The notes under the pieces are model-generated. The model was not told the DNA's origin and ran no database searches. It was given only the letters and a program-made list of their open reading frames with translations. Shown piece by piece: positions 2,250 to 29,085 of a stretch of DNA of 54,185 bases (the stretch's first letter is position 1; every line of letters starts with the position of its first letter). Both the position numbers and the translations under genes were made by a program. Source of the DNA: Vicinamibacteraceae bacterium (GTDB taxonomy: Bacteria > Acidobacteriota > Vicinamibacteria > Vicinamibacterales > JAFNAJ01); NCBI GenBank assembly GCA_023384595.1, contig JAHDVQ010000010.1:1-54185 (forward strand), read 5' to 3'.

Positions 2250-2547
2250 CCCCAGTTTCTCAGGAACAGGAGTCCACCTTGGCGACCAAGACCTCGTGCG
2301 TCGAACGTGAACCCCTGTCGAAGCTGCAGGAGACCGGCACGGCGTCCGTCCTCAGCGACAGCCTGCCGCAGTCGAGCGTCTACGACGTCGTGAGCTTCAT
2401 CGAGCTCGACATCGCCGAGTCGGCTTCGTCGGGCCAGGTCACGTCGACGCCTACAATCACTGGAATGACCGCTGGCGCGACACGAGCCGGCCGCCCAACC
2501 GGCCCGACACGATCCAGTGCTTCGACCACGCCAGGTACCAGCTGCTC

Positions 2548-2925
2548 GTGGCCGGTCACGACACGACCGATCACAGGCCGGACTCGACGACCTACCAGGT
2601 GTACACCACGGCGGGCGGCGTCGACCTGAACGAGACGGCCGAGGGCGTGCGGCACCTCAAGCGGACGCTCGCCCGGGGTGTGCCCGTGCTCGTGGGCATT
2701 CTCCTCGCGAGCGACGACGCCCCGCCTGAGCTGCGCAACAGGGACAAGACCACGAACCACTACGTGGTGATCGTCGGGGATGGGCAGGGATGCCGCGGGG
2801 CCATTCTTCCTGTTCCTCGACCGTCTGCTCGACTCGGTGCCGAGGGGTTCTACTTCAGGCCGAGCCTGAAGCTGGAGCACGACGGGGAAAAGCGCCTCGT
2901 GACGCAGGTCCGCGAGATACGCTGA
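2548..2925 (+). CDS. hypothetical protein, possible papain-fold (Cys...His) enzyme; may be the 3' part of a frameshifted gene starting at 2279
   Basis: Protein-like translation (..IQCFDHARYQLL...RGVPVLVGILLASDD...TNHYVVIVG..). The opposing 2380..3042 ORF is Arg/Pro-rich shadow. See the finding on the 2279 TTG start. Confidence 0.5.
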   Translation: MAGHDTTDHRPDSTTYQVYTTAGGVDLNETAEGVRHLKRTLARGVPVLVGILLASDDAPPELRNRDKTTNHYVVIVGDGQGCRGAILPVPRPSARLGAEGFYFRPSLKLEHDGEKRLVTQVREIR

Positions 2926-3007
2926 GGCTGGTGGCGCGTGCCGCGGTCGAGCGCGCCGGCCGAAGTCGCGCTCCGACCGCAACGCCAGGCGCGCGAGGCG
3001 CGGTGCT

Positions 3008-3628
3008 ATGATGCCAGGCGGGTATCCGCCTCGCATCTTCATGACCGATCCGCCTCCCGGCGCCGTGACCCTGTGGCTGCAGCGCTGGCGCGACGGCGAG
3101 CGCGACGCGCTCGAGCACGTCGTGCCGCTCGTCTACGACGAGCTGCGCCAGGCGGCGCGCCGGCAGATCAGCCGCGAGTCGCCGGGCCACACGCTCTCGG
3201 CCACCGCGCTCGTGCACGAGGTCTACCTGCGGCTCCTGCAGCGGCGGCAGATCGTCGGCGACGACCGTCACGCCTTTCTCGCCGTCGCGACGCAGACGAT
3301 GCGCCGCATCCTCGTCGAGCACGCACGCCGGCGCAAGCGCCTCAAGCGCGGCGGCGACCAGATGGTGGCGCCGCTCGCGGACGGCGATGACGTGGCGCTC
3401 GTGCCAGAGGGCGAGGTCGACGAGCTGCTCGCGCTCGACACCGCGCTGACCGAGCTCGCGCGCCTCGACGACCGCGCCGCGCGTGTCGTCGAGCTCCGCA
3501 TCTTCGCAGGTCTGACGCTCGAAGAGACCGCCACCGCGCTCGACCTGTCGACGAAGACCGTGCAGCGGTCGTGGACGACCGCGCTGGCGTGGCTGCGGAA
3601 GGAGGTCGCGGGCGGCATCGCGCGATGA
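3008..3628 (+). CDS. ECF-type RNA polymerase sigma factor (sigma-70 family, kinase-associated type)
   Basis: Region 2 (LVHEVYLRL) and region 4 HTH (VVELRIFAGLTLEETATALDLSTKTVQRSW). N-terminal TLWLQRWRDGERDAL is typical of the ECF clade paired with Ser/Thr kinases. Alternative start at ATG 3041. Confidence 0.9.
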   Translation: MMPGGYPPRIFMTDPPPGAVTLWLQRWRDGERDALEHVVPLVYDELRQAARRQISRESPGHTLSATALVHEVYLRLLQRRQIVGDDRHAFLAVATQTMRRILVEHARRRKRLKRGGDQMVAPLADGDDVALVPEGEVDELLALDTALTELARLDDRAARVVELRIFAGLTLEETATALDLSTKTVQRSWTTALAWLRKEVAGGIAR

Positions 3629-3692
3629 GGGGCGGGCGGCCCCGCGCCGAGCGGGTGGGTCGCGCAGGCGCGCCGCAGACTCTGGAGGGGAC

Positions 3693-6506
3693 GTGGGCAC
3701 CGACACCGGGCGCTGGCAACGGCTCGAGCAGCTGTTCCACGAGGGGCTGGCCGTGCAGGAGCGCGAGCGGGGCGCGTGGCTCGCCGTGGCGTGCGGCGGC
3801 GACGACGCGCTGCGGGCGGAGGTCGAGGCCATGCTCGCCGCGCAGCGTGAAGACCGCCCGCTCGGCCTCGAGCGCTGGGTCAACGACGAGCCCCTGGAGC
3901 ACGCCGAAGCCGACGGGTTCCCGGGCCGCCGCCTCGGCCCCTGGCAGGTCCGCGACCTGATCGGCCGAGGCGGCATGGGCCGCGTCTACCTCGCCGAGCG
4001 CGCCGACGGCCAGTTCGAGCAGCGCGTGGCGCTGAAGGTCGCCGACGCCGCGGCGCTGTCGCGCGACGGGGCGGCGGCCTTCGACGCCGAGCGCCGCATC
4101 CTCGCGCGGCTCTCGCACCCCAACGTCGCCCGCCTGCTCGACGCCGGCTTCACGCCGGAGGGCACGGCCTACCTCGTGATGGAGTACGTCGATGGCGCGC
4201 CGATTGTCGAGTACTGCGACGAGCGGCGGCTCACGATCGACGAGCGACTGCGGCTGTTCCGCGTCGTCTGCAACGCCGTGCAGCACGCGCACGGCTCGCT
4301 CGTCGTCCATCGCGACCTCAAGCCGTCGAACATCTTCGTCACGCGCGCCGGCGAGGTGAAGCTGCTCGATTTCGGCATTGCGAAGCTGCTCGAGCCCGAC
4401 TCGCCGGCCCGCGAGATCACCGCGCCGGGGCGGCGGCCGCTCACGCCCGACTACGCGGCGCCCGAGCAGGTGCTCGGCGGGACGGTGACGACGGCGACCG
4501 ACGTCTACGGGCTCGGCGTCGTGTTGTACGAGCTCATCGCCGGACGGCGGCCCTTCGACGGCGACGTCGCGCCCGACCCGCACGCGCTCCCGGCCTGGGT
4601 GACCACCGAGCCGTCGGCGCCGAGCGTGGTCGTGGCCGCCCGGGGGCCGCGCGAGACGCCTCGCGAGCGCGCTGCGGATCTCGCGGCCCAGATGAGAGCG
4701 ACGACAGCCGCGAAACTCTCGCGCCGGCTGGCGGGCGACGTCGATCGAGTGGTACTCAAGGCCCTGCAGCGCGAGCCCGCCGCGCGCTACGCGTCGGCGG
4801 GGCAGCTTGCCGAGGAGGTGGACCGGCTGCTCGACGGGCGGCCGGTGATCGCTCAGCCCGACACGGTCGGCTACCGCGCGCGACGCTTCGTCTCGCGGCA
4901 TCGGCTGGCTGTCGCGCTCGGCACGGCGGCGCTCGGCGTGATCGTGGCCTTCGCCGTGGTCGCGAGCCTGCAGGCGCGCGCGCTCGCCATCGAGCGCGAT
5001 CGCGTGCGGCTCGAGGCCGAGCGCGCCCAGCGCGTCGTGGCGCTCGTGGGCGACCTCTTCGCGCTGGCCGAGCCCGCGCCGGGGCAGGGCGAGACGATCA
5101 CCGCCGGCGAGCTGCTCGATCGCGGGACCGAGCGTATCGACGCGGGTCTTGCCGACGACCCCGCGTCGCAGGAAGCCCTCTACGGAGTCGTGGGACGCAT
5201 CTATGCCAGCCTCGGACTGCACGCTCGAGCAGGGGACGTCTTCGATCGGGTCGTCGACCTGCAGCGACGCGCCGGCCGCGGCGAAACAGGCGACGCGGCC
5301 GACGCCATGCACGCGCTCGCCGGGCAGCGTCTGCTGCAGAACGAGTACGCGGCGGCCGAGCGCTGGTATCGCGAGGCGCTCGCGCTGCGCGACGCGCTCG
5401 GCGCGCCGGCCTCCGAGCGCGCGGCGACGCTCGAGGGGCTCGGCCGGCTGCTGAGCGTGACCGGGCGGCACGAGGCCGCCATCGCGCCGCTGCGCGAGGC
5501 CGTCGTCCTGCGGCGCGAGGAGCGCACACCGCCGGAGGGCGTCATGTCGGCGCTGCACGAGCTGGGGCTGGCCCTGCACCGCACGGGCGCCATGGCCGAG
5601 GCCGACGAGCTGTTCCGGGAGGCGGTCGAGATCGGCCGCACGCTGCCGCCCGACGCGCCGGCGCTGGTGGAGGCGTCGCTGCACCTCGCGCGGTTCGTGC
5701 ATCACTTCGGACGAGACCCCGCGGGCGCCGAGCCGATCTACCGCGAGACCGTGGCGAGCGCGCGACGCGCCTACGCCAGCGACCACCAGAGCCTGGCCAC
5801 CGCGCTCGGCGAGGCCGCGCGCAACCTGCGCGACCTCGGACGCGTCGACGAGGCCGAGCCGCTGATGCGCGAGGCGCTCGGCATGCTCGAACGCCTCTAC
5901 GGCGAGCGCCACCGCGAAGTCGTCATCGCCAAGCAGGGCCTCGGCAGCATCGTCGCAGCCCGTGGAGACCACGAGGAGGCCGAGGGGCTGTATCGCCGTG
6001 CCCTCGTGGGGGCGCGAGAGGTGCTCGGCGCTGCGCACCCGCTGACGCTCGGTGCGCAGCGCGCGCTCGCTGCGCATCTCGAGCACCGGGGGCGGTTCGA
6101 CGAAGCCGGCCGCCTCCGACAGGCGGAGCTCGCCGCCGTTCTCGCGGCGCAGGGCGAGCGCGACGTCTATGCCGCCATCGCCCTCGCCGGGCTCGGCCAC
6201 CACCACCTCCGTGCCGGACGGCCCGACCGGGCCGAGGAGTACTTCCGGCGCGCACTCGCCGTGCGCGAGCAGGTGCACCCGCCGGATCACTGGCGGGTGG
6301 ACGAAGCGCGGGCTGCCCTCGGCGCCTGCCTCGTGCGGCAGCGCCGGTTCGGCGAGGCCGAGTCGCTGCTCGTGCAGGCGTATGAGCGCCTGTCGGCGTC
6401 GCGGGGAGCCGCAGCCGCCGAAGCGCGAGAGGCCCTCGACGGTGTGGTCGCGCTCTACGAAGCGTGGGGCCGGCCCGACACGGCTGCCACCTACCGCGCG
6501 CGGTGA
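3693..6506 (+). CDS. Ser/Thr protein kinase with one TM helix and C-terminal TPR repeats
   Basis: Hanks kinase motifs GRGGMGRVY, VALK, HRDLKPSNIF, DFGIAKL and APE. TM segment LAVALGTAALGVIVAFAVVASL. About 500 aa of 42-aa TPR-like repeats. GTG start 65 nt after the sigma gene. Confidence 0.92.
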   Translation: MGTDTGRWQRLEQLFHEGLAVQERERGAWLAVACGGDDALRAEVEAMLAAQREDRPLGLERWVNDEPLEHAEADGFPGRRLGPWQVRDLIGRGGMGRVYLAERADGQFEQRVALKVADAAALSRDGAAAFDAERRILARLSHPNVARLLDAGFTPEGTAYLVMEYVDGAPIVEYCDERRLTIDERLRLFRVVCNAVQHAHGSLVVHRDLKPSNIFVTRAGEVKLLDFGIAKLLEPDSPAREITAPGRRPLTPDYAAPEQVLGGTVTTATDVYGLGVVLYELIAGRRPFDGDVAPDPHALPAWVTTEPSAPSVVVAARGPRETPRERAADLAAQMRATTAAKLSRRLAGDVDRVVLKALQREPAARYASAGQLAEEVDRLLDGRPVIAQPDTVGYRARRFVSRHRLAVALGTAALGVIVAFAVVASLQARALAIERDRVRLEAERAQRVVALVGDLFALAEPAPGQGETITAGELLDRGTERIDAGLADDPASQEALYGVVGRIYASLGLHARAGDVFDRVVDLQRRAGRGETGDAADAMHALAGQRLLQNEYAAAERWYREALALRDALGAPASERAATLEGLGRLLSVTGRHEAAIAPLREAVVLRREERTPPEGVMSALHELGLALHRTGAMAEADELFREAVEIGRTLPPDAPALVEASLHLARFVHHFGRDPAGAEPIYRETVASARRAYASDHQSLATALGEAARNLRDLGRVDEAEPLMREALGMLERLYGERHREVVIAKQGLGSIVAARGDHEEAEGLYRRALVGAREVLGAAHPLTLGAQRALAAHLEHRGRFDEAGRLRQAELAAVLAAQGERDVYAAIALAGLGHHHLRAGRPDRAEEYFRRALAVREQVHPPDHWRVDEARAALGACLVRQRRFGEAESLLVQAYERLSASRGAAAAEAREALDGVVALYEAWGRPDTAATYRAR

Positions 6507-10018: not shown

Positions 10019-10250
10019 GGGCGCCTGGACGTTCCTGGTCAACCCGTTGTCGCCTTCGGCATCGGTTGCGCGGCGTTGGCACGCGCCGTCGCCGTGCTCG
10101 CCAGGCGATCCTCTGTTCGGATCTCGGACCTCTCCGCGTTCTGGATTGAATCAAGCGCTTTCGGCCGCGCGCACCGGGCCACGCATTGAACCCCACGGCG
10201 TGCCGCGATACACTCGGCCGCTCGAAGTCCAGCTCAGGAGGGAGCACCTG

Positions 10251-10640
10251 GTGAGCGTCCGACGCACGTGGCTCTTCACGCTGGTGGCGGTGATGGGTAA
10301 CGGCGTTCCAGTCTGCACGCGCGGAGCCGCCGACGCTGAACGTGCTCAGCTACCGCACGGCCGAGTCACTCGCGCCGCTGCTCGCGGGGTTCACCGAGAC
10401 CACCGGCTTCGCTGTCGCGCTCGACGTGCGTTCGGCCGACGCGATTGTCGACGTCTTTCGCGCGCTGCGCCCGGACGGCGACCCCGATCTCGTCATTTCG
10501 GTCGACGCGTTGCGCTTCGACGCGATGGCTGCGCTCGGGGCGTTCCGGCCACTGCCTGCGGACGTGCTCGCCCGCGTCCCCGTGTCGATGCGCGATCCTG
10601 AGGGGCAGTGGGTCGGCCTCAGTGCCGCTGAGGTTGCTCG
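10251..10640 (+). pseudogene. decayed N-terminal remnant of an ABC-transporter (iron-type) periplasmic substrate-binding protein
   Basis: AGGAGGGA RBS and GTG at 10251 give the signal peptide VSVRRTWLFTLVAVMG.... The SBP-like sequence (LNVLSYRTAESLAPLLAGFTETTGFAV...DLVISVDALRFDAM..DPEGQWVGLS) continues in another frame (the 10342 ORF). It loses similarity after about 100 aa. Confidence 0.4.
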
Positions 10641-10759
10641 ATCCGCCCGTTCGGGGAAGAATGCCGGGTACCCCATCAACGAGCTCACGGCGGGGCGACC
10701 GGCGGTTACGCACGCCGCGTGGCGCCTCGCCTGCAGGCCCCACCCTCGAGGAGGCAGAC

Positions 10760-11242
10760 ATGTGCTGTCCACGACTCGACGCGCGACGCTCGGCGGCGGT
10801 TCTCTGGGCCCTGCTCATCGGCATCCCCGTACTGACCTTTGCCGAGGAGCCCAAATCGTCGCGGCCCCTCGTCTTCACGGCAGACGACCCGCGTCTCGAA
10901 TGGGGACCGTGCCCCGAGTTCCTGCCGGCTGAATGCCGGCTGACGGTGCTCCAGGGCAACCCGGCGGCCCAGAACGCCGACGTCTTCCTGAGACTCCCAC
11001 CTGGTTCGGCGATTCCCCATCACTGGCACACGTCGGCAGAACGTATGGTCCTCGTCTCCGGCGAACTGCACCTTACGTACGACGGACACGACAAGACGAT
11101 CCTCAGACCGGGTGCCTACGCGTACGGGCCCGCGAAGCTGCCACACCGCGGCTCGTGTGCAGCCGGCGACCCGTGCGTGCTGTTCATTGCGTTCGAGCAG
11201 CCGGTCGACGCGGTGCCGACGAAGGCCGCGCCGGGCCAGTAG
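10760..11242 (+). CDS. secreted cupin domain protein
   Basis: ATG at 10760 after GAGGAGG. Signal peptide MCCPRLDARRSAAVLWALLIGIPVLTFA. Cupin motifs IPHHWHTSAERMVLVSGEL and GPAKLPH. Confidence 0.75.
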   Translation: MCCPRLDARRSAAVLWALLIGIPVLTFAEEPKSSRPLVFTADDPRLEWGPCPEFLPAECRLTVLQGNPAAQNADVFLRLPPGSAIPHHWHTSAERMVLVSGELHLTYDGHDKTILRPGAYAYGPAKLPHRGSCAAGDPCVLFIAFEQPVDAVPTKAAPGQ

Positions 11243-11252
11243 ACGCACCGAC

Positions 11253-12737
11253 ATGGCGGACACGGTCGCACGGCAGCTCGCGGCGACGCGCGCGTTCCTG
11301 CACGAGTTCCTGCGCACGGATCCGTTCCTGCGCTACGGGGCACACGGCGTCGGAATCGGGCCCAAACTCACCCGCGGGCGCGCCATGAGGCCGGTCGCGC
11401 TCCGCGTCTACGTCTCGTGCAAGCTCGACGGCGCCTCGCTGCCGGCCGAGCGTCGCGTGCCGCCCCGGTTCCGCTGGTCGCCGCCTGGATCCGGCGACAC
11501 ACACACCATCGTCACCGACGTCGTCGAATCGCCGCCGGCCCGCGCGCAGGCGGTCGACCCGGAGAGCCGCATCCGTCCGGTGCCCGGCGGGGTCAGCGGC
11601 TCGGCCATGGGCAGCGGCACGCTCGGCGGCTGGGTCTGGGACGCGCTCGACGATTTCATCGTCATCCTCAGCAACGCGCACGTCTTCGGCTACGCGCCAG
11701 GCGAACCGATCCTGCAGCCCGCGAAGACCGACGGGGGACAACTCGCCACCGACCGCATCGGAGAGGTCAAGCGCAGCGTGGCCGTGACACCCGTGGAAGG
11801 GCCGTCGCCCTGGCCGCTCGACCAGTGCAACTTCGTCGACGCGTCGATCGGGACGGTGAGCTCGAGCGACCTCTACAATCTCACGGTGCTCGAGATCGGT
11901 CCGGCCGTCTACGCGACCGCGGTCGCGGCACTGGGCATGCCCATCGAGAAGTCGGGGCAGACGACCGGGCACGTGCAGGGCGTCGTCGACGACGTGGCCT
12001 ATGCGATGGCGATCCAGACGCCGCTAGCGCCCGGGAACTGGCAGACGGTAGCGTACTGCGATCTGATCCGGTACGTGCCGGCGCAGTCTGGCACCGCCGT
12101 GTCCCTCGACGGCGACTCGGGTGCGCTCGTCTTCACGCCCGATCCGGGATCGGTGATCAACCCCGCGGTGGGCCTCCACTTCGCCGGGGCCGTCAACGGC
12201 AGTTACGGCGTGGCGTGCAAGATTCAGAACGTCTTCGCGGCGCTCGACGTCGATGTTCTTTGCGCCGGCGGTTTCGTGGCCTTCCTCGACGCGCTCGCCG
12301 ACGAGGGCCGCGACGCGGGGGCGGCGTTCGCGTCGACGCTGTTCGAGCCGAGAGCACGGCGATCGTCCTGGCGGACACTGCGCCTGCCTGCCGGGCTCGC
12401 CCGCGACGTCCAGCAGCGGCTGCGCGCGAGCGAGGTCGGGCGGGAGATCGTGGCCTTCGTCGATCGACATCGCGCCGAGCTGCTGTGGACGCTAGTTGCG
12501 AACGGCGACGCGCGCCGGGCGGCGGTGGCGGCGCTGCGCCCGATCCTCCGCGGCGCCACGACGACAAACGGCGTCTTCGGCTACGTCCTTCGAGCCGACG
12601 ACCACGATCGCGTCGGGCGGGCGTTCGACGCTGCCTCGAAGTCGGCGTCGAAGGCGCTCGCCGCCGACATCCGCCGTCTGCGGCGGAAGCTCGATGGCCG
12701 AATCGACGACACGGTCGGAGCGATCATCGAGGGGTAG
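11253..12737 (+). CDS. cytoplasmic trypsin/chymotrypsin-fold (S1-like) serine protease with C-terminal helical domain
   Basis: ATG at 11253. Triad candidates are LSNAHVF (His143, nt 11679-11681), FVDASIG (Asp) and LDGDSGALVF (Ser289, nt 12117-12119). No signal peptide. About 170 aa of helical C-terminal region. Confidence 0.85.
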   Translation: MADTVARQLAATRAFLHEFLRTDPFLRYGAHGVGIGPKLTRGRAMRPVALRVYVSCKLDGASLPAERRVPPRFRWSPPGSGDTHTIVTDVVESPPARAQAVDPESRIRPVPGGVSGSAMGSGTLGGWVWDALDDFIVILSNAHVFGYAPGEPILQPAKTDGGQLATDRIGEVKRSVAVTPVEGPSPWPLDQCNFVDASIGTVSSSDLYNLTVLEIGPAVYATAVAALGMPIEKSGQTTGHVQGVVDDVAYAMAIQTPLAPGNWQTVAYCDLIRYVPAQSGTAVSLDGDSGALVFTPDPGSVINPAVGLHFAGAVNGSYGVACKIQNVFAALDVDVLCAGGFVAFLDALADEGRDAGAAFASTLFEPRARRSSWRTLRLPAGLARDVQQRLRASEVGREIVAFVDRHRAELLWTLVANGDARRAAVAALRPILRGATTTNGVFGYVLRADDHDRVGRAFDAASKSASKALAADIRRLRRKLDGRIDDTVGAIIEG

Positions 12738-12769
12738 AGGCGACGGCGTCGCGAGGGATCGGTACGACG

Positions 12770-15571
12770 TCAGTGGCGACGCCCCCATCGGCGCAGCCAG
12801 CCCCTCACGCGACTCACCAAGCCAGCCGGCTGGCGCAGTGCGACGATCTCCGCTCGGATGGCTTGCGCGGTTGAGTCGAGCACTTCGGGATCCCGCTGCA
12901 TCAGCCAGAGCAGATCGCGCTCGAAGGTCGTTCGCGCCGCGGCGGCGTCGTTCATCTGGACCGCCAGGATGAACAGGTTCCAGGCGGACGCCAACGTCCG
13001 GGAATGCGTCTCGCCCAGTACCCGCCGGGTGGCGTCGAGCACCTGCTCCATGAGCGCGCGCGACGCGGCGAAGTCGCCTTGCGCGCGCAGCGTGCTCGCG
13101 AGGTTGTTCATCGCCCAGAGCGTGTCCGGGTGCGAGTCGCCCAGCCGTTGCCGGCAGCCTGCGACGACCCGCTCCTCGAGCGCCCGCGCTCCGGCGAGCT
13201 CTCCCTGGGCTTCGAGTGTCGTCGCGAGGTTGCCGAGTGCCCGCAGCGTGTCTGGATGCCCGTCGCCCCACATCGAGGTGTACGCTTCGACGACCTGCTC
13301 CAGCAGGGCGCGTGCGGCGGGCGTCTCCCCCTGGGCGTGAAGGGCGAGCCCAAGGTTCTGCGTGGCGATGAGCGACACGCGATCGCGCTCGCCGCGCGTC
13401 CGCACGCTGATCTCGCGCACTCGCTCCAGGAGGCGGCGCGCGCCGGCGACGTCGCCGATCGCCTGCAACGTCTCCGCGAGGTTGTTCCTCACGGTCAGCT
13501 CGACCTCGCGCCATTCGTCCGGCACCTGCCCGAGGTGGCCGACGACGCGTTCGAGCAGCGTCCGCGCGCCGGGCAGGTCGCCCGCGGCCCGCATGGTGAG
13601 CGCGAGGTTGTTCAGCGCGGTGAGCGTATGGGGATGCGTCTCGCCCAGTACGCGGCGGCTCGTCTCGACGAGGGAATCGAGCAGCCGGCGTGCGCCGGGC
13701 AGGTCGCCCATGTGGCGCCGCATCTCGGCGAGGTTGTTCATCGCCGTCAGCGTGTCCGGGTGCGTGCCGCCCTGAAGGCGCTGCCGCAGCTCGTACTGCT
13801 GCCGGCAGATCGCTTCGGCCGACGCGTACGCCCCCACGACGAAGTCGAACGTCGCCACCCAGTCGCGCAGTGCGAGACCAGAGAGGTCGTCGCTCGTCCT
13901 GGCGAGCTCACGGGCGTGGGCCACCAGCAGGTCGAGGTGCTGGTGCGAATCCTCTGCACGCCTCGGTAACGTCATCGTCAGGACCGCGACCGCTGCCGCC
14001 CGCAACGACTCGCGGCGCCGCGGTTCCGCGTCGTGGAACTGCACGGTGCGGGTCACCAGGGTGTGGACGGCCGCGACGCCAGGTCCGGCATCGGCCGGCT
14101 CGGTCAGCGACAGCAGATCGGCCTGGTGCAAGGCCCGCATCGCGCGCGACCGCGCGTCTCGGACAGGAAGCCCGTCTGCGGCCTCGAAGACCCGCTCGAC
14201 GAGCGCCGCGGGAATGGGCGCGACCGCGAGCCCGGCTGCGAGGCGCAGGAAGTCGCGGCCCTCTGGGCCGAGACGGGTCAGGCTCTGCAGCAGCGTCGCG
14301 GCCACGGCCGGTTCGTGACCGTTCGGCAGCACACCCGCGAGGTCCCGGGCGAGCTCGAGTGCGTCACGCGTCGGGTCGTTGAGCTCCGCCAGGACGTCGG
14401 CATACGACTGCAGCCGGAGCAGGGCCGCCGCGACATCCACCGCCAGCGCATGGCCACCCAGGCGCTCGACGATGGCCCGTGCGGCCAGCTCTTCGTCTTC
14501 GCCGATTGGTGCCCGCCGGCCCGGCGCGTGGGTCAGCAGCTCGTAGGCTGCATCCGGATCCAGCACACCGAGCGCCACGACCACCCCAAGGGCGCCGTAC
14601 TCGCGACTGCGCGTCGTGACGAGCGTTCTGCCGAGCGGATGCGGCGCCAGCCACCCGACCAGCGAGTCGTGCCCGAGCCCGGAGGGCACGTCGTCGACGA
14701 CCCAGAGGAAGGGCTGTCCCCGCTCGCCGAGTTCCCTCGCCAGGTGGCTCTCCACGTCGCCGAGCGGTCGTCCGTCGACGGGCAGACCGAGCGCCTCAGC
14801 CACTGCACGGAGTTGCCGGCCGCGCTCGGCCTCGCGCTCCTCCCGCCCCAGGCCAACCCGGGTCTCGTCGTTGCCGAACGCGCGCAGCCAGAAGACGCCG
14901 CCGGGATGCGCGGCCGCGAAGCGGACGGCGTACTCCTCGGCGAGCAGCGATTTGCCGACGCCACCCATGCCCTGGACGAGCGCGAGGGCGGATCCCGCGG
15001 CGCCCGTGATCACCGGCGCGTCGCGCGCGTGCAGCGCGGAGTGGAGCCGCCAGAGGTCGGCGAGGCGACCGACGAAGCGAGTCGATCCGGTGGACCGGCT
15101 GCCGTACCACTGAGGTTGCTCGAGGGGCTCGACGTCCCCGAGGGTGCCGGCAAGCGCTTTGACGTGAGCCTCGACATCCGCCGCAAGGTGGTCGAGGGCC
15201 GGCTGGTTGCCGGCGCCGGGGATGGCGACGAAGAGCGCATCGCGCAGCTCCACCGGCTGGATGTGCAACGCTTCCGGTTCCGGGTTGACGACGAGGATCC
15301 GCCGGCGGGGGTCGGCGTCGCGGGCCGCCGCGAGATACGCCGCGGCGAGTTCCCACTGGCAGGCGCGGGAGCTTGCGTACTCCGCGGCGTAGTACGCGAC
15401 GAGCACCTTCGATCGCGCCAGCCCCTCCGCGATCGAGCGGGTGATGCTGGCAAAGGTGGGGATGTCGCTCTCGTCCACCCAGACGTCGAGGCTTCGTGCC
15501 CGCAGGGCCGCCGCGATTGACGCCGCTTCCGGCGCGCGGGCGTGCGGGTAGCTGAGGAAGACGTCGTACAT
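12770..15571 (-). CDS. TIR - NB-ARC (STAND NTPase) - TPR protein, NLR/Avs-like
   Basis: TIR: MYDVFLSYPH... and SRACQWELAAA (Glu74, nt 15350-15352). Walker A GMGGVGKS (nt 14948-14971), Walker B FLWVVDDV, sensor TLVTTRS. About seven 42-aa TPR repeats (HPDTLxAMNNLAxTLRAxGDLxGAR). Confidence 0.92.
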   Translation of the reverse strand: MYDVFLSYPHARAPEAASIAAALRARSLDVWVDESDIPTFASITRSIAEGLARSKVLVAYYAAEYASSRACQWELAAAYLAAARDADPRRRILVVNPEPEALHIQPVELRDALFVAIPGAGNQPALDHLAADVEAHVKALAGTLGDVEPLEQPQWYGSRSTGSTRFVGRLADLWRLHSALHARDAPVITGAAGSALALVQGMGGVGKSLLAEEYAVRFAAAHPGGVFWLRAFGNDETRVGLGREEREAERGRQLRAVAEALGLPVDGRPLGDVESHLARELGERGQPFLWVVDDVPSGLGHDSLVGWLAPHPLGRTLVTTRSREYGALGVVVALGVLDPDAAYELLTHAPGRRAPIGEDEELAARAIVERLGGHALAVDVAAALLRLQSYADVLAELNDPTRDALELARDLAGVLPNGHEPAVAATLLQSLTRLGPEGRDFLRLAAGLAVAPIPAALVERVFEAADGLPVRDARSRAMRALHQADLLSLTEPADAGPGVAAVHTLVTRTVQFHDAEPRRRESLRAAAVAVLTMTLPRRAEDSHQHLDLLVAHARELARTSDDLSGLALRDWVATFDFVVGAYASAEAICRQQYELRQRLQGGTHPDTLTAMNNLAEMRRHMGDLPGARRLLDSLVETSRRVLGETHPHTLTALNNLALTMRAAGDLPGARTLLERVVGHLGQVPDEWREVELTVRNNLAETLQAIGDVAGARRLLERVREISVRTRGERDRVSLIATQNLGLALHAQGETPAARALLEQVVEAYTSMWGDGHPDTLRALGNLATTLEAQGELAGARALEERVVAGCRQRLGDSHPDTLWAMNNLASTLRAQGDFAASRALMEQVLDATRRVLGETHSRTLASAWNLFILAVQMNDAAAARTTFERDLLWLMQRDPEVLDSTAQAIRAEIVALRQPAGLVSRVRGWLRRWGRRH

Positions 15572-22168: not shown

Positions 22169-24358
22169 ATGCTGCTCTCGGCGATCGTGCTCGACACGTC
22201 CATGACGGCGTCTGCGGCGCTCGTGCGTCTCGCGCGCCACGGGTACTGGACCGACCCGCGCCGCCAGGAGACGCTGGCCGCAGTGCTCGACTACGCGGCT
22301 CGCCTTGCGCTCGCACCCGACGAGGCCGAGCGACGGCTCGCGCGCAACCCCTACGGGGTCGGTGCCGCGTTGCGGCGCCAGTGGGGCATGCAGGTGCTCT
22401 GGTACGCACGCTACCTCGAGGAGGTCCTGCATCGCTGCTCGGACGCGCCCCCCGGGCAGTCGCTGCTCGACGTCCTGGACCTCCACGAGCCCGACAGCCG
22501 GCCGCCCATTCAACTCGCCGACGACGGGGCGACGCCGAACGCCGAGGGGGTGGTGTTCGTGGGCGACGTCCCCGTGGGTGTGAGCGTGATGATGCCGATG
22601 GCCGCACCGCCGCCGCCCGCGCCGGCGCCACCCTTTGGCGTGCCCTTCGGGGTCGACCCGGGCTCGGGGCGCGGCCCGAGCCGCGGTGGTGGGGCCCCGC
22701 CTGCGGTGGCGCCGAAGCCGCCGGTGTCGGTGACCGCGTGGCCACGCCTCGACGCGCCGAACTACGTGCCGGCGCGCACGCCGTTCACGGTCGTCGTCGG
22801 CCTGGCGCGGGAACGGCAGGCAGGCGTCGGCGGCGGCCAGGTGTCGATCGCCGTGCCGGCCGGTCTTTCGAGTGTCGACGTGAGCGTCGAGCTGATCGCC
22901 GACGGCATCGATGCGCCCGAAGGATGGGCGCGCACCCTGCGCGTCGACGTCGCCGACCCCACGGCGACGTCGGTGAGCTTCGTGCTCGTCGGCCGCGACC
23001 CGGCTGGCCCGGAGTGGCTGCACCTGACGACGCTCGAGGTGAGGTACGTCCTCGACGGTACGGTCTGCGGCACGGCGTCGCGAGCGCTGGTCATCGGCGA
23101 TGCCTCCACTGTCGATCCGCCGCCCCGGCTCGGTTTCGGCGACGCATGGCTCGACCAGCCGCCGACGGCCACACCAGTCGTGCTCCGCGCCGAGACGCTG
23201 CCCGCCGACCTCACCATCGAGATCGCGAAGCCAGACGGCAATCCGGCAAACGGGCGCTTCGAGTGCCGTCTCTTCTCGCCGCACCCCCTGCCGTCGGGTG
23301 CCGGTCCCTTCCCGATCGACCTCGGCGACGATGCTCGGACGTTCGCGCGTTCGATCGTCAGCCAGATCCGCGACTACGCCAACGACCCGCTGGTCGACAA
23401 CCTCCTCGTCTCGCTCGGCATGCTCATCGCCGAGAAGCTGCCCCTCGACGTGCTCGACGCGGTGCGCGCGGTGGCGGCGGTGGCAGCCCCGCGTGCTCCG
23501 GCCGTGCTCGTGGTGTCGGCCGATCCCTACGTGCCGTGGGAACTCGCTCACGTCGACCCGCCGCTCGACCCGGCTCGGCCTCCCTTCCTCGGCGCACAGG
23601 TGACGCTCGGCCGATGGCTGCGCGACCCGCGCGGGACGGACATGAGGCCGGCTTCGCCCGGCATGGCCGCCCGGCCGCCCGCGCAGCCACCTTCGACGGT
23701 GGCCGTGAAGCACATGGCCGTCATGGCGGGGCTGTACCGCGCCGCGTCGGGCCTGCGCCCGCTGCCGGCCGCTGAGCAGGAGGCCGCAGCGCTCGCGCAG
23801 GCGTACGATGCGGTGAAGCTCGCCGCGAGCACCCTCGACGTGAAGCGGTTGCTCGACGCGCAGCTCACGCACGGTTTCGAGCAGATCGGCGGCGTCGAGG
23901 CGATTCACTTCGCGGGCCATGGCGATGTCGATCCCAACGTCGTCGACGGCTCGCTGCTCATGCTCTCGGAAGGCAAGCCGCTGCCCTCGATCCTGTTCCG
24001 CAGCGCGAAGTACGGCGGCGACAGGCAGCCGCTCTTCTTCCTCAACGCGTGCATGATAGGCGTCGGGGGCGAACTGCTCGGCGACATGGGTGGCTTTCCC
24101 GGCAATTGCCTGCGGGGCGGCTTCGGCGCCCTGCTCGGCGCGTTGTGGGAGGTCGACGACACGGTGGCGCGACAGTTCGCACTCGATTTCTGGAGGCGGG
24201 CGCTTCCGGTCGACGGCAGCCCGGCCGAGCCGGTGGGCGACATCCTGCGCGACCTGCGGGCCAAGTACTCGGACGCCGCAGGCCAGACCCCGGCCCACAC
24301 CTGGCTGGCCTACGTCTACTACGGTCACCCGAGGCTGACACTGCAGCGCGCCGTCTGA
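22169..24358 (+). CDS. CHAT (caspase-fold) domain protein with uncharacterised N-terminal two-thirds
   Basis: C-terminal CHAT motifs are AIHFAGHG (His584, nt 23918-23920), LFFLNACMIG (Cys628, nt 24050-24052) and GALWEVDD. The N-terminus has a helical domain of about 100 aa, a Pro-rich linker (APPPPAPAPPFGVPFG) and beta-rich segments. No signal peptide or TM helix. Confidence 0.88.
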   Translation: MLLSAIVLDTSMTASAALVRLARHGYWTDPRRQETLAAVLDYAARLALAPDEAERRLARNPYGVGAALRRQWGMQVLWYARYLEEVLHRCSDAPPGQSLLDVLDLHEPDSRPPIQLADDGATPNAEGVVFVGDVPVGVSVMMPMAAPPPPAPAPPFGVPFGVDPGSGRGPSRGGGAPPAVAPKPPVSVTAWPRLDAPNYVPARTPFTVVVGLARERQAGVGGGQVSIAVPAGLSSVDVSVELIADGIDAPEGWARTLRVDVADPTATSVSFVLVGRDPAGPEWLHLTTLEVRYVLDGTVCGTASRALVIGDASTVDPPPRLGFGDAWLDQPPTATPVVLRAETLPADLTIEIAKPDGNPANGRFECRLFSPHPLPSGAGPFPIDLGDDARTFARSIVSQIRDYANDPLVDNLLVSLGMLIAEKLPLDVLDAVRAVAAVAAPRAPAVLVVSADPYVPWELAHVDPPLDPARPPFLGAQVTLGRWLRDPRGTDMRPASPGMAARPPAQPPSTVAVKHMAVMAGLYRAASGLRPLPAAEQEAAALAQAYDAVKLAASTLDVKRLLDAQLTHGFEQIGGVEAIHFAGHGDVDPNVVDGSLLMLSEGKPLPSILFRSAKYGGDRQPLFFLNACMIGVGGELLGDMGGFPGNCLRGGFGALLGALWEVDDTVARQFALDFWRRALPVDGSPAEPVGDILRDLRAKYSDAAGQTPAHTWLAYVYYGHPRLTLQRAV

Positions 24359-24380: not shown

Positions 24381-25910
24381 ATGCCACAGCTCACGGGCGC
24401 GGCACAGCCGGTGGCCCTCGGAGGCGGCTACTTCATCCGGGCGCCAGGCGTGCGCGGTCAGGCGGAGCTGAGGCGGCCGCGCACGGCTGGCGAACGCTCG
24501 CGATCGCGCACGGTCGACGACGGGACGACGGCACTCGACGCCGCGTTCTCGGCTGCGGGCGTCACCGAGGTGCGGCAGATCGATCTTTCGGTGCAGCCGC
24601 AGCCATCCGCCGCGGCGACCACGACGCTGCGCAGCGTCGACGGCCGCCAGGATGCGCTGGAACTCGTGGTGCCCGATCTCGGGCCCGAGACGGGACAGCT
24701 CGTGCTCGCCTGCGACGAGATGGGCGTGTTGACGTGGCATCTGCCGATTGACGAAGCCGGTGCGGTCGAAACGCCCACGACCCGGGGCAGTGGTGGCACG
24801 AAGCGGTTTCGCATCCCGGCGACCCGTACAGCGCCGCCTCCGCCAGCCGACTCGCGCACGCGGAGCCTGCTCGGCGTCGTCGGGCGCAAGCTGCTGAAGG
24901 TGCTGGTCTACCCGATCACCGATCCGGTGATCGGGGCCGTGAGCGAGTTCTTCGCCGAGCGATGGGAGCAGCGCCATCGTCCGTACGGCCTGCGCGACTT
25001 CAGCCCGGGCAGCTTCCGCTTGCCGGCCGGCGCGCCGCTCGGCGATGCCGACTGGCCACGGCTTGCGACAGGGCCGGCGCTGCTCTTCGTGCACGGGACG
25101 TTCAGCACGGCGCACGGCGCGTTCAGCCAGATCCCGGATGCCGTCTTCGCCGAGCTGCACGCGCGCTACGGCGGGCGGGTGTTCGCCTTCGACCACTTCA
25201 CGCTCTCGCACGATCCGGCTCGCAACCTGCAATGGCTCGCCGACCACCTGCCGGCGCTGGATCTCGACGTCGACATCGTGTGTCACAGCCGGGGCGGCCT
25301 GGTGGCGAGGGCGCTGGCTGAGCGGCCTGCGTCGCTCGGTGTCGGTGCCTCGAGGGTCCGGGTGGGGCGCATCGTCTTCGTCGGCGTGCCGAACGCGGGC
25401 ACGCTGCTCGCTCATCCCGCGCACATGGTCGCGATGATCGACCGCCTGACGACGGCGCTCAACCTCTTCCCCAGCGGAGCCGTGGCCGAGACGCTCGAGG
25501 CCATCCTGACGGCGATCAAGGTGATCGGGCACGGGGTTCTCAACGGCCTCGACGGCCTGGCGGCGATGCAGCCGGGCGGGGCCTTCCTGGCGAAGCTGAA
25601 TACGGGGAACCCGCCGGGCGACGGGTACCACGCCATCGGCGCCGACTACGAGCCCGTCGAGGAAGGGCTGAAGGCCCTCGTGGCAGGCACGGTGGCCGAC
25701 GCCGTGCTCGATCGGGTGTTCGAGGACACCCCGAACGACCTCGTCGTGCCAGAGCCGGGCGTCTTCGAGGTCGATGGCAGCGGGGCGTTTCCCATTCCCG
25801 AGGCGCGCCGCCTGCGGGTGCCGCCGGAGGAGGGCGTGATCCACACGACGCTGTTCGGCCATCCGGCCGCCGCGGCCCGCCTGCTCGACTGGCTCGGCGC
25901 CAGGTCGTGA
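24381..25910 (+). CDS. lipase-like alpha/beta-hydrolase with ~190-aa N-terminal extension
   Basis: GGAAGGAG RBS 7 nt before the ATG, 22 nt after the CHAT gene's stop. Motifs LLFVHGTFS, nucleophile elbow VCHSRGGLV (Ser303, nt 25287-25289), NDLVVPEPG and VIHTTLFGHP. Confidence 0.8.
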   Translation: MPQLTGAAQPVALGGGYFIRAPGVRGQAELRRPRTAGERSRSRTVDDGTTALDAAFSAAGVTEVRQIDLSVQPQPSAAATTTLRSVDGRQDALELVVPDLGPETGQLVLACDEMGVLTWHLPIDEAGAVETPTTRGSGGTKRFRIPATRTAPPPPADSRTRSLLGVVGRKLLKVLVYPITDPVIGAVSEFFAERWEQRHRPYGLRDFSPGSFRLPAGAPLGDADWPRLATGPALLFVHGTFSTAHGAFSQIPDAVFAELHARYGGRVFAFDHFTLSHDPARNLQWLADHLPALDLDVDIVCHSRGGLVARALAERPASLGVGASRVRVGRIVFVGVPNAGTLLAHPAHMVAMIDRLTTALNLFPSGAVAETLEAILTAIKVIGHGVLNGLDGLAAMQPGGAFLAKLNTGNPPGDGYHAIGADYEPVEEGLKALVAGTVADAVLDRVFEDTPNDLVVPEPGVFEVDGSGAFPIPEARRLRVPPEEGVIHTTLFGHPAAAARLLDWLGARS

Positions 25911-25923
25911 GTCGACGGCTTCC

Positions 25924-28900
25924 TCACGACCCGACCTCACCGGTGGCCTGACGCCGCGTGTTGCGAATTGCGCTGACGAAGAAGGGTGCCCAGTCGTAGC
26001 GGGTATGGCGGCGGCCCGGGTTGGCGAGGTGAGCCCGGAGCGCCCACTGCAGGGCGACGTCTGGCTCGGCCCCCGCGGCGAAGGCCCGGTGGAGGTCGAC
26101 CAGGATGAGACGCGCGCTCGCGTCGTCGACCGGCCATAGCGCGCCGAGCACCGAGCCCGCGCCTGCCTCGAAGAACGCCGCTTGGAGACCGAGGAGGTCG
26201 TCGCCGGGCAGCTGTGCCAGCCCCCGTCCTCCAACCGCCCGCTGCCCCGAGTGGCAGGCCGCCAGCACCACGAGCTCTGCCCGCAGATCGATGGCGCTCA
26301 CCTGCCAGCCGTCGAGCACGCCATCGGCCAGCGCGATGTCGCAGGCCAGCGGATCGTCGGCCGACTCTCCCGCGAGCACGCTGCGACCGTGCGTCGCCAG
26401 GTGCAGGCACCGGCACGCGGTGAAGGAGAGATCGAGGAATCCTGCGCGCGTGACGTTGGCGACGAACTGCCCTCGCTCGCCGTGCACCGCAGCCACGTCC
26501 ACGGCTTCCGCCTGTGAGTGTTCGAGCGGTGCCCAGCCCGCCTGGGCGAAGCGGTCGATGCCCACGGCGACGACCTGGCCGTCGCGGCAACCCGACCATG
26601 GCAAGAGCAGGCTCGACAGGTTCGGCGCGTACCGTACCGCGAACCGCGTTCCCAGCCACGCCCCCTCCGGCGCGTCGCCGCCGGTCCAGGGCATCGCGTG
26701 AAACGGGAAGAGGTGCAGCGCTCGATGCGGGCTGAGCACGAGCCGGGTGCGTCCGGCGATGAAGGCTCGAACCGGCTCCGGTACCAGCCGCGGCGCGAGG
26801 GCGTCGACGATCCGATCGATTGCCGGCACGATCGCCTCCAGCGCGGGGCGCGGAGCGTTGAACGCCTGCACGCACGTCAACCAGCGATCGAGCTGCCTCC
26901 GGTCGTCCGGCGTCAGGATGATCGTGTGCTTTTCGAACCGGCCGCGAGCGACGGCCAGCACGACCAGCGCGTCGTCGCCGAGCCAGAACCACGAGAGCGC
27001 CGCCTCGTCGTCGGCGAGAGCGGCCTGGACGCCGGCCACGGTGCACGGCCGCTCGTCGGCCGACTCGCCGGGCGCGGAGACGAGCGCCCGAGCCGTCGCG
27101 AGCAGGCGCCGGCGTTCGATGAGGGCGTCGGCCGCGGTCGAATGCGCGGGCACGGCGGCCAGGGCACGGTTCGCCGAGACGAAGTCGCGCTCGACGGCGT
27201 CCGCCCACGGGTCGGCCCCGCCGTCTCGCCGGCGGTCCCGCCGGCGCTCGAGTCGTCGTCCGGCGAAGTGCGCCTTCAGCCGTTCGGTCGTGTCGACGAG
27301 CGCGTCATCGCGTCCGAGCTTCAGGTTCGCGACGACCGCGTGCTCGTACAGCTCGGCCCGCGTGGCCAGGAAGGCCGCTTGCTGGTACGGCGCGCTGACG
27401 CGCCGCCGCTGCGCCTCGAGCTCGGCGATGGCGGGCTCGCAGAGCGCGATCACAGCCTCTGAATCGCGCTGCGCCGCGTGCGCGCGGACGTCGTAACGGG
27501 TCGCGTCCAGATAGGCTTCGCGCTCGGCCGACGACGCCAGGCACTCGAGCGTGAGCGGGTGGATCGGCGAGAGGGCCGCGCGCGCGGCTGCCGTCGCGGC
27601 CGCGACCTCAGCGAATCGGCCGAGCGCGAGCCGCACGTACGCCAGCTCCAGCCAGGCGCGGGCGAGGTGCAGGCGCGATGCCAGGTGCTCGGCTTCAGAG
27701 ACCAGACGACGGGCCTCGTCGAGCTGCGCCTCGGCCGGCGCCACGTTGCAGGCGAGTCGCAGCGCATACAGGGCGGCGTCGAGGACCGCGCCGCGTTCGA
27801 GGAACCCCGCCGTGCCGGGAGAGCTCGACGATCCCGTCCCGGAATCGATGGGATCGCCTGCTCCGGGCTCGCCGAGCCACCACGCGAGTTCGGCGCTCAC
27901 CTCGCGCTGCAGCGCGTCGGCCTCGTCGACGAGTTGCGCGACGAACGGACCGAGGGCCGCCAGGCACGCTTCCGCGCGGGCCACACCCTCCCTGTCCGTT
28001 CGCACGTCGTCGCCGAGGCGTTCGCTGATGCGGGCGCCGCAGACGACCGCCCAGTGGCCCGCCACGTCGGCGAGACGACCGAGGAGCTCTGGGCCGGGAA
28101 CGCTGGCTGACGCGACGACGATCCAGGCCCCGGTCGCACGGTCGAACGCGGGTTCAGGGTCGACGTACCCGGCCTCTTCGAGCACGCTGGCGAGTTCGCG
28201 TGCCAGTCGCGCGAACTCGAAGCGGTCTCCCGCGCGGTGCGACTCGACCGCGAGCCCGCCAAGCGACGCCGCCCGCGCCATCGGGTCGTGCGCGACGAGC
28301 AGCGCACGGACCAGCGACGCCGCGGCGGCGTCGAAGTCGGCTTTGACGCCGCGCTCGAGGGCGGCCACGCGCTCGCGCAGTCGGTCCGCGTCGGCCACGT
28401 GGCCCGCGCGTTCGAAGCACGCGATCCCGTCTGCGAGCGCGCGGCGCGCCAGGTCGAGGTCTCCGATCTCGACTGCGCCCCGCGCACGGACGTCTTGGGC
28501 CATGCCGAGCCACCACGCGTGGTCGGCCGGTACCGGCCGGTCCCAGGTGTCCGCCCGGCGAGCGAAGGTCTCGATGGCGGTCTCGAGCGCCCGCAGGCGC
28601 GTCGTGTCGGCGAGGCCGACGTCGCAGTCGCGCATCGCCTGCGTCAGCGGCGGCAGCTGGGCCAGAAGGTCGGCCTGCCGTGGGTCGGCCGCGCGGGGCG
28701 AGACCGCGCCCGGAAATGCGACGGCGATGTGCTCGACGATCTGCGTGAGCGCCGCGTGGCGGCTGACGAAGCATTGCTCGATCTCCGTGGCGGTGCCGTC
28801 GCGACAGCGTGCCTCGAGATCCGCGAGCGGCTCGACGGGCGCGTGGCCCTCCGGCCACGCCTCGCGCTGCAGCCGCAAGGCCACAAACGGCCTCGCGTCG

Positions 28901-29085
28901 TGCACGTGACGTGCGGCGGTTTCGTCACCGACCGCCTCCGTGACGCGTCGCACGCGCTCGGCCGGTGGCAGGTCGAGCCACGACCACAGCGCGTGGCACG
29001 CGTCGACCAGCCCCCTGCCAGGCAAGGTGGAGCCGACGGCCTGCCGAAACAGCTGGCGGCCGTCCTCGCTGTCGATCGTCGTCAT
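25924..29085 (-). CDS. TPR/helical-repeat - CHAT domain protein
   Basis: About 700 aa of helical, TPR-like N-terminal region. CHAT motifs are CLHLATHG (His899, nt 26389-26391), LVVLAACHSG (Cys944, nt 26254-26256) and GALWPVDD. Convergent with the hydrolase gene across a 13-nt gap. Confidence 0.88.
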   Translation of the reverse strand: MTTIDSEDGRQLFRQAVGSTLPGRGLVDACHALWSWLDLPPAERVRRVTEAVGDETAARHVHDARPFVALRLQREAWPEGHAPVEPLADLEARCRDGTATEIEQCFVSRHAALTQIVEHIAVAFPGAVSPRAADPRQADLLAQLPPLTQAMRDCDVGLADTTRLRALETAIETFARRADTWDRPVPADHAWWLGMAQDVRARGAVEIGDLDLARRALADGIACFERAGHVADADRLRERVAALERGVKADFDAAAASLVRALLVAHDPMARAASLGGLAVESHRAGDRFEFARLARELASVLEEAGYVDPEPAFDRATGAWIVVASASVPGPELLGRLADVAGHWAVVCGARISERLGDDVRTDREGVARAEACLAALGPFVAQLVDEADALQREVSAELAWWLGEPGAGDPIDSGTGSSSSPGTAGFLERGAVLDAALYALRLACNVAPAEAQLDEARRLVSEAEHLASRLHLARAWLELAYVRLALGRFAEVAAATAAARAALSPIHPLTLECLASSAEREAYLDATRYDVRAHAAQRDSEAVIALCEPAIAELEAQRRRVSAPYQQAAFLATRAELYEHAVVANLKLGRDDALVDTTERLKAHFAGRRLERRRDRRRDGGADPWADAVERDFVSANRALAAVPAHSTAADALIERRRLLATARALVSAPGESADERPCTVAGVQAALADDEAALSWFWLGDDALVVLAVARGRFEKHTIILTPDDRRQLDRWLTCVQAFNAPRPALEAIVPAIDRIVDALAPRLVPEPVRAFIAGRTRLVLSPHRALHLFPFHAMPWTGGDAPEGAWLGTRFAVRYAPNLSSLLLPWSGCRDGQVVAVGIDRFAQAGWAPLEHSQAEAVDVAAVHGERGQFVANVTRAGFLDLSFTACRCLHLATHGRSVLAGESADDPLACDIALADGVLDGWQVSAIDLRAELVVLAACHSGQRAVGGRGLAQLPGDDLLGLQAAFFEAGAGSVLGALWPVDDASARLILVDLHRAFAAGAEPDVALQWALRAHLANPGRRHTRYDWAPFFVSAIRNTRRQATGEVGS

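Follow-up and report, generated by a model that had tools for sequence, protein, structure and literature searches.

The DNA analysed here (the window) comprises positions 1 to 54,185 of contig JAHDVQ010000010.1, from the Vicinamibacteraceae bacterium assembly GCA_023384595.1 (Acidobacteriota), and the present work concerns three of its genes. A long gene, P0001 (the long CHAT), encodes a CHAT protease of 1053 amino acids (aa) and meets, stop to stop, a pair of genes that encode a second CHAT protease bearing a TCAD7 domain (P0002) and a lipase-like alpha/beta-hydrolase of the DUF7379 family (P0003). Comparison of about 80 relatives of P0001 suggests that the long CHAT acts as a second trigger for the cassette formed by this pair. 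The features of the locus, with the grounds on which each is recognized, are as follows.

25924..29085, minus strand: long CHAT gene P0001, 1053 aa (open reading frame, translation, coding GC3 signature, homologues)
27016..29085, minus strand: predicted helical hairpin (TPR-like) arm of P0001, residues 1-690, putative sensor or regulatory region (AlphaFold2 model, Foldseek)
26749..27015, minus strand: predicted MID-like link from arm to protease in P0001, residues 691-779, a three-stranded sheet plus helices (AlphaFold2 model)
25966..26748, minus strand: CHAT protease domain of P0001, residues 780-1040 (Pfam PF12770, alignment, AlphaFold2)
22169..24358, plus strand: TCAD7-CHAT protease P0002, 729 aa, His584/Cys628, putative cognate protease of the hydrolase (Pfam)
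24381..25910, plus strand: DUF7379 lipase-like alpha/beta-hydrolase P0003, 509 aa, putative zymogen effector (Pfam)
25911..25923, no strand: spacer of 13 nucleotides (nt), GTCGACGGCTTCC, between the convergent stops of P0003 and P0001 (direct sequence reading)

A preliminary description of this locus, made from the sequence alone, had reported P0001 as a minus-strand open reading frame of 1053 aa encoding a CHAT protease with an intact catalytic dyad. The reading frame is borne out by its start (ATG, 29083-29085), its stop (TGA, 25924-25926), its translation, and a coding signature (GC content of 0.86 at third codon positions, GC3, vs. 0.55 at second positions, GC2) like that of genuine genes of this 71% GC contig. 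The sole Pfam domain in P0001 is CHAT, a domain of the caspase-fold clan CD peptidases (PF12770, residues 762-1037, E 4e-41, 141.8 bits vs. a cut-off of 24), and it contains the motifs LHLATHG (894-900), LAACHSG (941-947), and ALWPVDD (982-988). The dyad is likewise confirmed, since its members, His899 (codon 26389-26391) and Cys944 (codon 26254-26256), lie at the expected motif positions and are invariant in a 26-sequence family alignment. Also invariant in this alignment are R954 and D962-D963, as well as the dipeptide Arg954-Gly955 (26221-26226), which sits in a loop (947-957) that directly follows the catalytic Cys, carries the family signature PGDD, and is predicted to be disordered (predicted local distance difference test score, pLDDT, <50). 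Placed ten residues past Cys944, R954-G955 recalls the inter-subunit linker of caspases and, by this analogy, is a possible autoprocessing site. No transmembrane segment is present in P0001 (maximum Kyte-Doolittle 19-residue mean 1.56), and neither PADLOC nor PHROGs contains a model for it.

The AlphaFold2 model of P0001, computed from the family alignment (pLDDT 86, predicted TM-score 0.83), places helical hairpins over residues 1-670, from a first helix at 7-18 to a last one at 650-669, with pLDDT mostly >85, followed by a linker with predicted strands at 694-702, 706-713, and 716-723 and helices at 726-741 and 749-767. The arm described beforehand as TPR-like is hence TPR-like in its predicted fold and its Foldseek matches, but not by sequence profiles, for no Pfam TPR model matches residues 1-760. 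Against the PDB, the top Foldseek ranks of the P0001 model are taken by Csx29/TPR-CHAT, separase, and the TPR-CHAT anti-sigma factor DdvA (8rot_A, E 2.4e-10), all at 10-14% sequence identity, and the best match is Csx29 (8eey_B, E 7.9e-14, target TM 0.52, identity 10-13%). The comparison with Csx29 put forward in the preliminary description is thus supported in architecture and fold, but does not extend to family membership: the NCBIfam model NF041237 reaches 17.7 bits where 300 are required and covers the CHAT part only, and a profile search of PDB sequences gives no better than E 0.015. That description had also noted the lack of a CRISPR array or cas gene, and in this it proves correct, as no array-like repeats, cas gene, or Rfam CRISPR family or RNA are found in the window by repeat and Rfam scans and Pfam scans of 23 window genes. 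Moreover, ORF clustering of about 120 family loci reveals no Cas7-11-sized neighbor. The proposal that P0001 is a Csx29-type accessory protease of CRISPR type III-E, separated from its Cas7-11 partner, can draw on the TPR-like plus CHAT architecture common to both proteins and on the Foldseek ranking, but it is effectively refuted already by the failed family model, the low identity, the lack of cas genes in the window, and the lack of Cas7-11-sized neighbors at the family loci.

The two genes that abut P0001 form a unit in their own right. P0002 matches TCAD7 (E 4.8e-21) and CHAT (E 4e-13) in Pfam, and P0003 matches DUF7379 (E 2.4e-57), with weak matches to DUF7362, PGAP1, and Palm_thioest. 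The ribosome-binding site of P0003, GGAAGGAG, sits 22 nt after the stop of P0002 upstream, and its own stop (TGA, 25908-25910) lies 13 nt from that of P0001, as had been stated previously and as direct reading of the sequence bears out; a terminator scan finds no terminator-like hairpin in this spacer. The two CHAT proteases were also correctly described as non-identical: their CHAT domains share 39% identity over 66 residues around the catalytic Cys, and they are therefore not recent duplicates. The TCAD7-CHAT gene precedes the DUF7379 hydrolase gene in every context read (L008, L206-L209), and the hydrolase is fused to a CHAT or caspase domain at five further loci (L196, L198, L199, L201, L203), the fusion partner being a TCAD7-CHAT protease in L196 and L201; this constant adjacency, together with the fusions, identifies the pair as a unit. 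The DUF7379 hydrolase family is larger and tighter than that of the long CHAT, with >900 matches, 120 of them at 55-77% identity. Within the hydrolase, R135-G136 is kept in 98% of 117 homologues and R25-G26 in most, and in P0002 the Pro/Gly-rich linker that joins the TCAD7 head to the beta-rich middle (residues about 140-180) is hypervariable except for an invariant [S/A/T]-R-G, in which R172-G173 is a candidate processing site. The candidate R-G sites of the P0002 linker and of the P0001 loop also occur where a relative of one protease is found without the other. Three further loci bear on the hydrolase family. In a Thiobacillus metagenome-assembled genome (L209, 9552-11771), the pair precedes a Peptidase_S8-TPR gene, beyond which lies an rve transposase gene, so that another extra protease lies beside the pair, possibly truncated by an insertion sequence. 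At L197 (G089:C116, 44-11093), a DUF7362-DUF7379 hydrolase gene is followed about 2.3 kb on, on the same strand, by two classical TPR_12/TPR_10-CHAT genes (1204 and 1054 aa), and no TCAD7-CHAT is detected at that locus. Lastly, the window genome encodes a second DUF7379-like hydrolase (C180:24991-26418, minus strand) at a contig end, which would have cut off any partner gene.

A search of 5.8 billion proteins yields about 100 full-length relatives of P0001 (1000-1100 aa, 29-53% identity), distributed among the Gemmatimonadales, the Acidobacteriota, the Burkholderiales, the Vicinamibacterales, the Acetobacteraceae, and the gammaproteobacterium Candidatus Thiodictyon syntrophicum. Searched alone, the helical arm matches 77 clusters (50% identity) in a set of 1.84 billion representatives, and because nearly all of these are full-length members or fragments thereof, the arm can be considered specific to the long-CHAT family. 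It also diverges faster than the protease domain (23-50% vs. 42-66% identity to P0001). Among the 401 genomes sampled in the phylum of the window, a full-length member is found only in the window genome (G000) and as an identical copy in G228, and the long CHAT is a rare accessory gene. The G228 region (G228:C50:132434-142442) is 100% identical throughout, from the CNNM gene through the pair and the long CHAT to a glycosyltransferase gene, in a genome that is assigned another genus code (g2), which suggests either that the same population was binned twice or that the contig was mis-binned. The window genome also encodes a separate CHAT protein of 986 aa (C25:18578-21538, plus strand).

The genes found at the 3' end of long-CHAT genes provide the broadest view of the partners of this family. 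The roughly 120 loci fetched were typed by tblastn, ORF clustering, and Pfam, and after collapsing near-identical copies they amount to 82 lineages, in which the 3' position is occupied as follows.

46 of 82 lineages: a protein of about 115 aa, encoded on the same strand, its start no more than a few nt from the CHAT stop
3 of 82 lineages: an LCAT/PGAP1-like lipase-type hydrolase alone
2 of 82 lineages: an LCAT/PGAP1-like hydrolase with a DUF7363-CHAT protease, as the next gene or as a fusion (L135; L211/L087)
2 of 82 lineages: the convergent DUF7379 hydrolase and TCAD7-CHAT pair (window, Thiodictyon)
5 of 82 lineages: an EVE-domain gene (one Gemmatimonadales clade)
19 of 82 lineages: nothing recognizable, or housekeeping genes
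5 of 82 lineages: cut by a contig end

Lipase-like alpha/beta-hydrolases thus occupy the 3' end in seven lineages (two of DUF7379 type and five of LCAT type), four of which also carry a second CHAT. Translational coupling, through a 9-nt gap or a 4-nt overlap, links the LCAT/PGAP1-like hydrolase genes to the long CHAT, and the products of the coupled genes (L010:3289-4677, L011:13057-14466, L031:1564-2964, and L093:11034-12422) feature a GHSMGG nucleophile motif and an Ig-like C-terminal tail. Since coupling is seen at loci with no second protease, the long-CHAT family pairs directly with lipase-like hydrolases. Outside the 82-lineage count, L215 has an Abhydrolase_1 gene 77 nt downstream of the long CHAT, and L213 contributes two unknown genes. 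The dominant partner, the protein of about 115 aa (alignment A2; about 46 loci, e.g., L013:13106-13459), belongs to an unannotated family whose members have a single hydrophobic segment immediately preceded by a conserved Arg, and it has no Pfam family at E below 0.1 apart from isolated weak matches. Its AlphaFold2 model predicts a ferredoxin-like beta-alpha-beta-beta-alpha-beta arrangement (pLDDT 87), for which Foldseek returns a generic ferredoxin-like fold. In outline it looks like a protease-released effector; its assignment to EACC1 was considered and set aside, as the protein has no Pfam match and only a generic fold, and is EACC1-like in layout alone. Neither this small partner nor an LCAT-type hydrolase is encoded anywhere in the genome of the window. 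In the Gemmatimonadales clade (L009, L022, L023, L086, L210, L212), the EVE-domain gene follows the long CHAT, 26 nt away in L210, and downstream of the closest homologue of P0001 (53% identity), at L007, lies a HepT/MNT toxin-antitoxin pair (L007:13523-14037).

The association of the long CHAT with the pair is not confined to the window locus. The same three genes, in the same order, in tail-to-tail orientation, and with abutting 3' ends, recur in Candidatus Thiodictyon syntrophicum between flanks unrelated to those of the window, with a DNA polymerase III chi gene at one end and, at the other, genes for a Schlafen-like ATPase and an encapsulated-ferritin-like protein. Co-directional equivalents of the trio, involving another hydrolase subfamily and the same kind of second protease, are found at two further loci: in L135, the long CHAT is directly followed by an LCAT-type hydrolase and then by a DUF7363-CHAT protease (911-4413 for these two), and in L211, by a 1056-aa fusion of LCAT-type hydrolase, DUF7363, and CHAT (10193-13363). 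The arrangement at L197, in which a DUF7379 hydrolase precedes two classical TPR-CHAT genes, is also counted in favor of a module. Furthermore, the long CHATs of the window and of Thiodictyon fall in one 10-member clade (10 of 23 tree rows, support 100/99), and their hydrolases fall in one clade as well (10 of 90 tree rows, support 97). For the hydrolase tree clade membership alone is used, the approximately unbiased (AU) test being uninformative there, with a near-identical Thiodictyon duplicate (P0125) lying outside the constrained group. Lastly, DUF7379 is detected above cut-off in 41 of 401 genomes, or about 0.1 per genome, so that fewer than 0.1 chance adjacencies are expected among some 80 lineages, and chance adjacency is unlikely. 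We favor, at about even confidence, a reading in which the long CHAT is a sensor-protease that feeds into the TCAD7-CHAT/hydrolase zymogen cassette, the three genes forming one functional unit.

A number of observations weigh against this reading. The DUF7379/TCAD7-CHAT pair accompanies the long CHAT in just 2 of 82 lineages, with no pair within 10 kb of the sister sequence L007, and the nearest homologues of the pair (L206, 77%/67% identity; L207, 75%/77%) occur without a long CHAT. An exclusive clade of window and Thiodictyon long CHATs is rejected by the AU test (p 5.6e-6), and a single origin of the trio would hence require at least three losses, unless the trio was assembled twice. The genome-level co-occurrence that the preliminary description had proposed to look for is at background, DUF7379 being present at the same rate in genomes with a long-CHAT member (3 of 29) and in the genomes sampled from the phylum (41 of 401). 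P0001 and the pair are convergent and not co-transcribed; solo members of the family lie next to genes for DNA polymerase I, DNA polymerase III alpha, pseudouridine synthase, or a histidine kinase; and defence-like genes are found near both trios (TIR-NB-ARC-TPR in the window, the Schlafen-like ATPase in Thiodictyon), which makes a clustering of independent systems plausible. Most of these points also sustain the principal rival, in which two independent systems merely abut, the pair being a mobile cassette complete with its two genes. On that view the long CHAT would have lost its usual small partner, and would act by itself on host or phage proteins, or be idle. To the rival can be added that the pair is far more widespread (>900 homologues) than the long CHAT (about 100; 77 clusters), which in the phylum is confined to G000 and G228, and that an effector-less caspase-like protease has been found to protect on its own (Evans et al., 2025, bioRxiv 10.1101/2025.11.14.688446). 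We consider it a serious contender that falls somewhat short of an even chance. Independence does not readily explain why an immediate tail-to-tail junction should be seen in two distant genomes with different flanks, why the partners of both trios should come from the same small subclades when well below one chance adjacency is expected, or why separate co-directional operons should join a long CHAT to a lipase-like hydrolase, whether or not a second CHAT is present.

The long CHAT might also be assigned a regulatory or housekeeping role, for example as a DdvA-like or separase-like protease that releases a regulator, with no part in the hydrolase cassette or in defence. The Foldseek matches to DdvA and separase are in keeping with this idea, as are the stable neighborhood of EVE gene, PQQ (pyrroloquinoline quinone) dehydrogenase, and DinB in the Gemmatimonadales clade and the housekeeping genes that flank some members, but we judge it improbable. 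P0001 has no transmembrane segment and no anti-sigma domain, and there is no sigma factor gene adjacent to it, the nearest gene for an extracytoplasmic function (ECF) sigma factor being 22 kb away; a DdvA-like anti-sigma role in particular was considered unlikely for these reasons. Moreover, the family is rare and patchy across phyla, as befits an accessory gene, and its dominant partner is a small protein resembling a latent effector. The preliminary description had left the choice between a three-component module and two clustered systems to a synteny survey. In this survey the exact trio is seen in the window and Thiodictyon lineages alone, and the closest homologues of the pair lack the long CHAT. 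The balance, tilted by the Thiodictyon trio and the L135 and L211 operons, leans toward a module, and the points listed above weigh against a fixed one.

In the favored model of a sensor-protease feeding into the cassette, P0001 would be a cytoplasmic, caspase-like protease whose helical arm keeps the protease off until a signal is bound. Once active, the long CHAT would cut a latent effector encoded at its own 3' end. In most relatives this effector would be the small ferredoxin-like protein and in others a lipase-like hydrolase, and in the window it would be the DUF7379 zymogen P0003, shared with the resident TCAD7-CHAT protease P0002. The more likely route is direct, with the long CHAT cutting the hydrolase at its conserved Arg-Gly sites as a second, sensor-bearing input, because relatives with a hydrolase and no second protease exist. 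Less likely, the long CHAT would cut the TCAD7-CHAT protease, which would then cut the hydrolase. By either route, the activated hydrolase may kill or arrest the cell in an abortive-infection type of defence. A stronger version of this model, which we regard as rather unlikely, posits a self-contained two-protease circuit that operates without CRISPR, CBASS, or MoxR-vWA, as either an initiator-executioner cascade or an AND gate. In the cascade form, the sensor CHAT would cut the invariant Arg-Gly of the TCAD7-CHAT linker, freeing the TCAD7-CHAT protease to process the hydrolase, and in the AND-gate form each protease would cut one of the two zymogen sites, such that cell death would need two independent signals.

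The surroundings of the trio in the window are rich in defence-like genes, with a TIR-NB-ARC-TPR STAND (NLR-like) gene (12770-15571, minus strand) and an ORF convergent with it (11112-12737, plus strand), for which Pfam returns no match, lying 7-10 kb away. The GC content around the trio is like that of the rest of the window, and between 21.7 and 29.5 kb neither meaningful direct repeats nor an integrase gene is found. No empty site could be found in other genomes; in the nearest of these the flanking CNNM protein is only about 40% identical and the flanking glycosyltransferase is missing. No remote synteny is seen with loci of the Gemmatimonadales type, whose S9 peptidases are just 27% identical.

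Protease-licensed death effectors have only just been recognized as a major design of bacterial immunity, and the locus bears on the question of how an infection signal reaches minimal caspase-hydrolase cassettes that have no obvious sensor. If the favored reading is correct, that sensor may come from a rare CHAT family with helical repeats, working in parallel to or upstream of the resident protease. The window locus, the L135 and L211 operons, and the Thiodictyon copy provide a small three-gene test case, within a family of about 100 members whose partners swap between the small ferredoxin-like protein and lipase-like hydrolases, which makes substrates easy to guess. If the neighbors are instead unrelated, the locus still usefully warns that proximity within a defence-rich region is no sure guide to function. 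The components and their logic are already known, from the CHAT proteases themselves to zymogen cassettes of caspase and hydrolase and loci with two caspases; what is new here is a rare, uncharacterized helical-repeat CHAT family with swappable effector partners that is recurrently attached to a protease-bearing cassette.

The pairing of CHAT proteases with hydrolases was predicted previously (Kaur, Burroughs, Iyer, and Aravind, 2020, eLife, PMC7159879) and later demonstrated with a related pair (Evans et al., 2025). In Lysobacter capsici, the alpha/beta-hydrolase LcHydrolase is a zymogen that LcCaspase cuts at two R|G sites, after which it kills the cell, and proteases with varied sensor regions have been reported in the same study (Evans et al., 2025). 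The resemblance to the window locus is one of layout and sites: the gene for a caspase-fold cysteine protease adjoins that for a lipase-like alpha/beta-hydrolase, here with 13 nt between the convergent stops, and R135-G136 and R25-G26 of P0003 recall the R|G sites of LcHydrolase. The window locus differs in having two CHAT proteases per hydrolase, the second of them convergent and equipped with a family-specific helical arm of 690 aa. In the MoxR-vWA-VMAP conflict systems, a caspase domain is always found with a neighboring alpha/beta-hydrolase, and a second caspase, on the vWA component, accompanies the VMAP caspase and the hydrolase (Kaur et al., 2020). The TCAD7 domain of P0002, which was defined from these systems, is the sole link to them; no MoxR, vWA, or VMAP gene is present among the window genes scanned, and here the second caspase stands alone as a protein with helical repeats instead of being fused to vWA.

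For the small partner of most relatives, the closest parallel is EACC1, whose cleavage by its own caspase liberates a pore-forming fragment (Kaur et al., 2020; Evans et al., 2025). The alpha+beta protein of about 115 aa, with its one hydrophobic segment, is similar in size and in its placement beside a protease gene, but its gene lies 3' of the protease gene, not 5', and is absent from the window and from the window genome. With Csx29 of the type III-E Craspase, P0001 has its domain order in common, with an arm of helical repeats first, a small domain in the middle, and CHAT at the C terminus, and, conceivably, also the logic of an activated protease that cuts a neighboring latent protein. P0001 differs from Csx29 in its length (1053 aa vs. 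about 700-750 aa, at 10-13% identity) and in having, instead of Cas7-11, CRISPR, and Csx30, a small ferredoxin-like protein or lipase-like hydrolases as partners. That a bacterial CHAT can activate another caspase-like protease has been demonstrated for SAVED-CHAT, which acts on PCaspase (Steens et al., bioRxiv 10.1101/2023.06.23.546230), and this serves as a precedent for the cascade route. P0001 contains no SAVED domain, CHAT being its only Pfam match, and the window encodes no CBASS (cyclic oligonucleotide-based antiphage signaling system), cyclic-oligonucleotide synthase, or CRISPR genes. Both loci nevertheless bring together two different caspase-like proteases, and the one described here adds to them a hydrolase zymogen as the putative downstream effector.

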